Sequence record: MZ375356.1
Source: Escherichia phage T4
Strand: one strand, 5' to 3'
Length of the DNA: 64,000 bases
Part shown: positions 62,494-63,618 of the stretch, in pieces
Position numbering within the stretch: position 1 is the first letter of the stretch
Layout: the number at the start of each line of letters is the position of its first letter
Made by a program: the position numbers and the translations under genes
Notes under the pieces: generated by a model
The model's input: only the letters and a program-made list of their open reading frames with translations
What the model was told of the DNA's origin: nothing
The model's database searches: none

Positions 62494-63042
62494 ACCCAAG
62501 AAAACATCTACTGAGCGTTGATACCACTGCAAATCCAAATAGCCATTACGCACATTAAACTGATAGAACATATGACAAGGCGGTAATGCCATATATTTAA
62601 GTTCAGCTGGATTCCATGCAGAAACAATTTGACGCCTATCATTTGGCAGTTTTTTAATACGATCAATAACTTCTATAATTTGGTCTACACCACCAAAATC
62701 ACGCCACTGTTTTCCATAAATTGGACCAAGTTCACCGCTATGGTATCCTAAATCTTTTGCTTGATTTTCGTAATTTTCATCCCAGACTGTTTTGCCTTGG
62801 ATTAACGAATCGTGTTGAATTAATCGTAAATCATTGACATTTGTGCTTCCTGATAAAAACCATATTAGCTCAGCAATGCAAGCTTTCCAGGCGAGCTTCT
62901 TAGTTGTTACCGCAGGAAAACCTTTAGTTAAATCCCAGCGTAATTTAGTACCGAACAGAGCAATTGTTCCTGTGCCTGTACGATCATCGGTTTCATAACC
63001 ATTTTCAAAAATGTCTTTAATTAAATCTTGGTATTGTTTCAT
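62494..63042 (-). CDS. td: thymidylate synthase, exon 1
   Basis: [26 protein letters not shown]...QRSVDVFLG with an in-frame TAA at the first intron codon. Confidence 0.92.
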
Positions 63043-63618
63043 TTATATACTGATTCCGTAAGGGTTGTTACTTCATCTATTTTATACCAATGCGTTTCAA
63101 CCATTTCACGCTTGCTTATATCATCAAGAAAACTTGCGTCTAATTGAACTGTTGAATTAACACGATGCCTTTTAACGATGCGAGAAACAACTACTTCATC
63201 TGCATAAGGTAATGCAGCATATAACAGAGCAGGCCCGCCAATTACACTTACTTTAGAATTCTGATCAAGCATAGTTTCGAATGGTGCATTAGGGCTTGAC
63301 ACTTGAATTTCGCCGCCAGAAATGTAAGTTATATTGCTCCCAAGTAATATAGAAATGTGCTAAATCGCCGTCTTTAGTTACAGGATAATCACGCGCAAGG
63401 TCACACACCACAATATGGCTACGACCAGGAAGTAATGTAGGCAATGACTGGAACGTTTTAGCACCCATAATCATAATTGTGCCTTCAGTACGAGCTTTAA
63501 AATTCTGGAGGTCCTTTTTAACTCGTCCCCATGGTAAACCATCACCTAAACCGAATGCTAATTCATTAAAGCCGTCGACCGTTTTAGTTGGAGAATAAGC
63601 GAATACCAATTTAATCAT
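63039..63618 (-). pseudogene. frd: dihydrofolate reductase, frame-disrupted
   Basis: N-terminal ORF (63289-63618, [31 protein letters not shown]...) and C-terminal ORF (63039-63302, ...[14 protein letters not shown]...) in different frames; 580 nt against the 582 expected for 193 aa. Confidence 0.8.

Follow-up and report, generated by a model that had tools for sequence, protein, structure and literature searches.

The stretch of DNA analysed here, referred to as the window, comprises 64,000 nucleotides of Escherichia phage T4 (MZ375356.1). Near its end lies frd, the gene for dihydrofolate reductase (DHFR), and directly downstream of it, with the stop and start codons overlapping, lies td (Table 1). 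When aligned with frd from NC_000866 and from phage T4T, the gene showed a sole indel, where wild-type GCAATATATAAC has become GCAATATAAC in the window, and there is no compensating indel elsewhere in frd. Both the ORF listing and three-frame translation accordingly gave two overlapping minus-strand ORFs at the locus and not one. A preliminary description of this DNA had reported a frameshift that splits frd, a locus of 580 nt as compared with the expected 582, and a C-terminal half that is intact in another frame; the alignment bears this out, with residues 97–193 reading through to the stop at 63039. That description had allowed for either a net loss of 2 nt or a gain of 1 nt, of which the alignment shows the loss. 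It had also proposed an inspection of reads at 63290–63310, which is where the premature TAA falls; the deletion itself is ∼25–40 nt upstream in gene orientation.

Table 1. Features of the frd–td region and of other altered sites in the window
Feature	Position	Strand	Detail
frd locus	63039..63618	minus	split by a 2-nt deletion
2-nt deletion site in frd	63330..63334	minus	TATATAT to TATAT; one TA unit of (TA)3 lost; placement ambiguous within the run
frd N-terminal ORF	63289..63618	minus	109 aa: residues 1–96 (...HFYITWEQY) plus 13 out-of-frame; stop TAA at 63291–63289
frd C-terminal remainder	63039..63332	minus	residues 97–193 (...TESVYK) plus stop, stranded in the other frame
frd ribosome-binding region	63619..63630	minus	second 2-nt deletion (event 63624): AGGATTTACGTAATG in wild type, AGGATACGTAATG in the window
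frd stop/td start overlap	63039..63042	minus	ATGA
td exon 1	62491..63042		same as wild type
I-TevI ORF in the td intron	61633..62362	minus	split by three small deletions: CAG (62094), ATT (62119), TC (62195)
segE	30253..30626		3-nt deletion, 9-nt tandem duplication (TGGTGGAAT), three 2-nt deletions
hoc deletion junction	28722..28727		∼574 bp lost (wild-type 110192–110765, C-terminal half of Hoc)
hoc, separate deletion	29106		TA
Gene 29 deletion	38320		in-frame loss of TTA
Gene 7 hexamer	1666..1671		TATTTT replaced by its reverse complement AAAATA
uvsY–gene 25 intergenic array	33297..33338		near oriF; 10-nt tandem repeat TGTTATTGGA, 4.2 copies

Neither of the two reading frames covers the enzyme. 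The C-terminal piece has a single in-frame start, a GTG at 63302, which would yield 87 aa and has no convincing Shine–Dalgarno sequence before it; the two ORFs therefore overlap by 14 nt (63289–63302). Wild-type T4 Frd aligns with the solved T4 DHFR structure 1JUV along residues 1–193, and the coding for the C-terminal strands of that fold, as well as for the glycine-rich cofactor motif VIGGPALL, is now found only in the stranded frame. In the 109-aa product the match to the Pfam family PF00186 (DHFR_1) is confined to profile positions 13–64 of 159, while the C-terminal fragment scores 16.8 bits, below the cut-off of 25. Thus the window offers ORFs of 109 and 87 aa in place of a single uninterrupted 193-aa ORF over the whole fold, and no one chain in which both halves, VIGGPALL included, are matched. 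The N-terminal product, with its 96 residues of Frd and without the C-terminal half of the fold, should be inactive. Since the domain is truncated in the N-terminal fragment, and the C-terminal piece falls below the cut-off and lacks a good start, we infer that frd is a null allele here, the inactivity of the fragments being expected from general knowledge of DHFR and of T4. A further difference from the old reference, Ala7 in the window for Arg7 in NC_000866 and in 1JUV, is a GC/CG discrepancy in that reference; T4T agrees with the window at these bases.

The region upstream of frd is also altered. The deletion at 63624 shortens the spacer between the Shine–Dalgarno sequence and the ATG by 2 nt, and the same change is present in the record OL964745.1. 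Together with a deletion at 63672 it makes two more 2-nt losses in the frd–frd.1 intergenic region, the one at 63624 lying inside an AT-rich NGG protospacer. Downstream of frd, no difference from wild type was detected in the window in the td exons, nrdA, nrdB or cd. As ribosomes translating frd now stop ∼250 nt upstream, any translational coupling from frd to td, if such coupling exists, would be lost. The I-TevI ORF within the td intron is split by deletions of its own, and an Rfam scan of 61000–63700 gave no hit to the td group I intron at the gathering threshold.

The origin of these changes was traced through the database. A megablast search with the frd region as query, run against 50,697 phage records, returned, among the matches listed, one 100% match over 851 nt, which was OL964745.1; other T4 records among those matches had ∼99.3% identity, with six gapped bases different. 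OL964745.1 is entered as ‘Mutant Escherichia phage T4 clone T4_7t1’ and, at 159,752 bp, is 9 kb shorter than wild type. In it frd is annotated as two ‘dihydrofolate reductase’ CDS, the first of which (UJD20450.1) is the only exact-sequence match to the 109-aa product, and many other dispensable genes are likewise fragmented. The window is nevertheless not the same record, the two being 13 deletions, 11 insertions and 3 substitutions apart over 64 kb. Nineteen of the 32 small deletions of the window, that in frd among them, are common to 7t1, and each clone has private ones. Judged by their sequences, the window and T4_7t1 are sibling clones. The locus-tag prefix T4583L in the notes of OL964745.1 links the record to the CiPGr study of Yuan et al. 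(Nucleic Acids Res 2022, PMC9825161).

As described in the main text of that study, T4 was passaged 300–600 times on Escherichia coli MG1655 carrying SpCas9 together with a library of chip-synthesised guides and repair templates of 50 + 50 bp, designed to produce 100-bp or whole-gene deletions. The design spared essential and structural genes as well as regulatory elements, and it provided as many as eight guides per gene. Clones were plaque-purified three times, propagated on plain MG1655, sequenced on the Illumina platform and assembled de novo. In T4 only, the authors also encountered 1322 unplanned deletions of one or two bases with premature stops, some of which they tentatively interpret as CRISPR-escape mutations; the main text makes no mention of frd (PMC9825161). 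The window fits this source in two respects: it is nearly identical to a deposited clone of the study, with which it has otherwise private mutations in common, and its small deletions, mostly of 2 nt, include unplanned T4-specific losses of one or two bases with premature stops. Designed deletions, whether of 100 bp or of a whole gene, were not found in the 64-kb window, where the only large deletion, of ∼574 bp in hoc, is not of a designed size. A second clone from the same study and pipeline, 3t3 (OL964735.1), has an exact 100-bp designed deletion at wild-type 133375–133474 and no small deletion in 68 kb. It is the only sequenced clone with an intact frd. The frd deletion is present in OL964745.1 and absent from OL964735.1 and from the other T4 records among the matches listed.

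In order to place the frd lesion among the other changes, the window was compared with the modern wild-type T4 genome MT984581, so that the known errors of NC_000866 drop out. Differences from NC_000866 at 10424–10427, 17485–17494, 18821–18826, 34685–34688 and 40372–40382 vanish in this comparison. Those seen against NC_000866 only (paired compensating indels in genes 12, 18 and 51, a net in-frame 3-nt insertion in gene 54, and several GC/CG swaps) are, on the evidence of these alignments, errors of the old reference and not mutations. The converse case was met in wac, where a 12-nt insertion, AAGCTTTGGCCC, might have been taken as engineered; we rejected this reading, as the 12 nt are present in NC_000866, so that the deletion is private to MT984581. 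Relative to MT984581 the window has 32 small deletions, 3 insertions (one of them an artefact of the comparison), 17 substitutions and the one large deletion. Examples of the deletion sites are 25448, 29106, 30382–30626, 45839–48011, 51511–51657, 56813, 62094–62195 and 63330–63672.

The distribution of these indels is far from random. Essential genes account for 52.5% of the compared bases, yet not one of the 27 indels of frameshift size lies inside them (P = 1.9e-9), and the avoidance persists when sites matched for A/T repeats are taken as the targets (P = 7e-9). The only indel of the window in an essential gene is the in-frame loss of TTA in gene 29, which encodes the baseplate hub/tail-length determinator; it is present in 7t1 also, which additionally has an in-frame loss of TAG in gene 48 and a harmless change of TAAA to TAA at the stop of gene 21. 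The spectrum is also biased. When 83 small deletions of the window and of 7t1 are pooled, losses of 2 nt are the most frequent, followed by those of 3 nt and then of 1 nt, and in most cases a short tandem repeat has lost one of its units (TATA, ATAT, ACACACA, TAGTAGTA, CATCATCAT). In the window 26 of the 32 deleted strings consist of A and T only, as compared with the ∼42% expected for dinucleotides. Base substitutions are rare in 7t1, with 1 in 45 kb; the sole substitution in the first 45 kb of OL964745.1 gives I159V in gp39, the large subunit of topoisomerase II (gene at 1568–3118).

The gene group most heavily hit is that of the homing endonucleases: segE in the window has five separate changes (Table 1), and mobB in the sibling 7t1 has 11 small deletions in ∼800 bp. 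In hoc, a separate 2-nt deletion accompanies the large one.

An error of sequencing or assembly in a dinucleotide run, with frd intact in the phage itself, would account for the lesion, and some platforms are prone to errors in short tandem repeats. We regard this as highly improbable. The data are from Illumina sequencing with de novo assembly, and the same frd deletion recurs in the separately assembled sibling OL964745.1. Random errors would not spare essential genes, in which none of the 27 frameshift-size indels was found (P about 2e-9), and 3t3, which went through the same pipeline, is free of small deletions over its 68 kb. The authors of the study, moreover, met deletions of this kind in population reads (PMC9825161). 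Errors would be expected to be blind to essentiality and unrepeated in independent assemblies; the frameshift-size indels are not blind to it, and the frd deletion is repeated. The recurrence of the lesion in two separate assemblies and the lack of frameshifts in essential genes indicate a real mutation that has been filtered by selection and not a read error. A function retained by the split gene, through ribosomal frameshifting at the lesion or non-covalent complementation between the fragments, is still harder to credit. The 14-nt overlap of the ORFs is in its favour, and engineered split-DHFR reporters are divided close to the corresponding position; such engineered complementation, however, needs fused interaction domains, and the C-terminal fragment has only its GTG start, with no clear Shine–Dalgarno sequence. 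A programmed frameshift would be expected to show a split ORF conserved in relatives together with a slippery sequence. Wild-type relatives instead have a single ORF: of the 549 matches listed, only OL964745.1 has two DHFR entries, and every other record has one. There is no slippery heptamer in CAATATAACTTAC, the junction is the product of a recent deletion in the laboratory, and many dispensable genes are plainly inactivated in the same lineage.

More weight attaches to the possibility that the frd deletion was selected as an escape from SpCas9, the shift at the PAM-distal end of a protospacer preventing further cutting by the guide and the loss of the gene being a by-product. The authors themselves propose CRISPR escape for some of the one- and two-base deletions (PMC9825161). 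The frd deletion lies inside the coding-strand protospacer CAATATATAACTTACATTTC-TGG, where it keeps a PAM-proximal match of 16 nt followed by four mismatches, and the deletion in the Shine–Dalgarno spacer likewise leaves a PAM-proximal match of 16 nt in GATTTACGTAATGATTAAAT-TGG. With 4 G/C, CAATATATAACTTACATTTC and GATTTACGTAATGATTAAAT are among the four most AT-rich of the 45 protospacers at the locus, and few G/C mean few of the glucosyl-hmC residues that hinder Cas9. Had escape shaped the class as a whole, its members should be enriched in the PAM, the seed or the cut-site region of NGG targets, and they are not. The median distance of the deletions to NGG cut sites is 8 nt, no closer than the 4.8 nt of matched controls, and their offsets from NGG targets show no peak. 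An NGG target, PAM included, is overlapped by 66% of 53 events as against 71% of controls, and a protospacer (protospacers only) is altered by 57% of the 83 events as against 66% of controls. A residual 16-nt match is left in 8 cases class-wide where 4.4 are expected (z = 1.7, not significant). The in-frame deletions in genes 29 and 48, moreover, affect structural genes, a class outside the CiPGr design. Given no link to NGG and deletions in untargeted structural genes, Cas9 escape cannot explain the deletion class, and direct escape as an explanation of the whole class is not supported. For the frd deletion itself escape is possible; we consider it unlikely, since with up to eight guides per gene one escape would not protect frd.

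Other origins of the deletions were considered. A TTTC lies ∼18–24 nt from the frd deletion, as might be expected of a Cas12a scar, but across 53 events the offsets from TTTV do not peak anywhere, and the nuclease of the study was SpCas9. A mutator replisome was rejected because gp43, gp44, gp62, gp45, gp41, gp61, UvsX, gp46, gp47, Dda, DexA, gp42 and gp56 are all wild-type in 7t1; in the window no difference from wild type was found in ligase (gene 30), uvsW or uvsY. Errors in the synthesis of repair-template oligonucleotides were set aside by argument: they would be neither restricted to A/T nor specific to tandem repeats, and they would accompany designed deletions of 100 bp or of whole genes.

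We conclude that the frd frameshift is very probably a tolerated null allele, one item in the genome-wide load of 1–3-nt deletions carried by this CiPGr lineage and filtered by selection. The lineage gathered such deletions throughout the genome, mostly of A and T only, and as a rule a short tandem repeat lost one of its units. Over hundreds of transfers purifying selection purged all frameshifts from essential genes, while those in dispensable DNA stayed. The loss of Frd would be tolerated because the phage DHFR is an auxiliary enzyme of nucleotide synthesis, whose role the FolA of the host can presumably cover; frd has been listed under auxiliary metabolism (PMC2993671). On this account frd would have been struck by a general deletion process and not specifically selected. 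What the preliminary description missed was this context: the DNA is that of a CiPGr laboratory mutant in which many dispensable genes, frd among them, have 1–3-nt deletions.

The null allele might alternatively be more than a passenger. An undescribed mutational process could be at work in the lineage, in which loss of Frd and of other nucleotide genes limits dTTP and so promotes slippage at A/T repeats. The features that can be cited for such a process are the loss of A/T-only di- and trinucleotide units, the ∼30 small deletions per substitution, the wild-type replisome and the lack of a link to the Cas9 PAM; for a part of frd in it, one can point to 3t3, which has frd intact and is free of small deletions in 68 kb. 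We nevertheless think it quite improbable that frd has such a causal part. Helper functions induced by arabinose, and binding of Cas9 without cleavage on glucosyl-hmC DNA, are other candidate generators of the deletions.

The preliminary description had further supposed that the loss of frd matters beyond metabolism, through a role of DHFR in the baseplate. That DHFR is a baseplate component is an old biochemical claim, which later structures of the baseplate are not known to have reproduced. The present clones speak against such a requirement, as they were plaque-purified and are viable on plain MG1655: full-length Frd is evidently not needed for the formation of infective particles under these conditions, in keeping with the auxiliary metabolic role of the gene. 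Viable frd mutants of T4, and deletions of the non-essential nrd/td/frd region, are classical. Like them, the window allele indicates that T4 can lose its DHFR and still form plaques on standard E. coli, and as a knockout it only re-confirms that T4 plaques on E. coli K-12 without a DHFR of its own. It differs from the classical mutants in being a 2-nt frameshift that arose during passaging with a Cas9 library, and in the second deletion in the spacer of the ribosome-binding site.

The lesion belongs to a documented class, that of the unplanned one- and two-base deletions of T4 in the CiPGr experiment, and is already known in kind: it comes from the same lineage, is a 2-nt deletion with a premature stop and disrupts a non-essential gene (PMC9825161). 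Where the main text of that study offers CRISPR escape as a partial explanation, the comparisons made here reveal no class-wide link to NGG and a strong bias towards A/T-only units of tandem repeats. Like SpCas9 escape mutations in T4, the frd deletion is situated within candidate NGG protospacers; unlike them, it is PAM-distal and affects neither the PAM nor the seed, and its class is not enriched at NGG. The residual interest of the lineage therefore lies in its signature of 2–3-nt deletions at A/T repeats, for which our tests argue against CRISPR escape as a general explanation. The nearest mutational signature so far described is that of eukaryotic deletions of 2–5 nt at short tandem repeats, known as the topoisomerase-1 type. 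The T4 lineage and that signature have in common the loss of one 2–3-nt repeat unit and the scarcity of substitutions, a resemblance of spectrum only; we know of no type IB topoisomerase in T4 or E. coli. A caution also follows for users of the record, in that the window does not represent natural T4 biology, and the CiPGr experiment is the source of many of its ‘broken’ genes.

Two further sites in the window vary in other ways. In the intergenic region between uvsY and gene 25, the array of TGTTATTGGA is 20 nt longer than in wild type and 10 nt shorter than in 7t1, so that its length differs between the sibling clones. In gene 7, the replaced hexamer lies between the inverted repeats CTAC and GTAG, and the change looks like the inversion of a hairpin loop. 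The AAAATA form is present in the window, 7t1 and 3t3, but not in NC_000866 or MT984581, and probably goes back to a polymorphism in the parental stock.

The frd–td junction varies in nature as well. In many natural Tequatroviruses additional ORFs have been inserted between frd and td; these phages also encode an 81-aa ‘hypothetical protein’ grouped in one cluster with Frd at an identity of at least 90%, which suggests that these proteins derive from partial duplications of frd beside mobile insertions.
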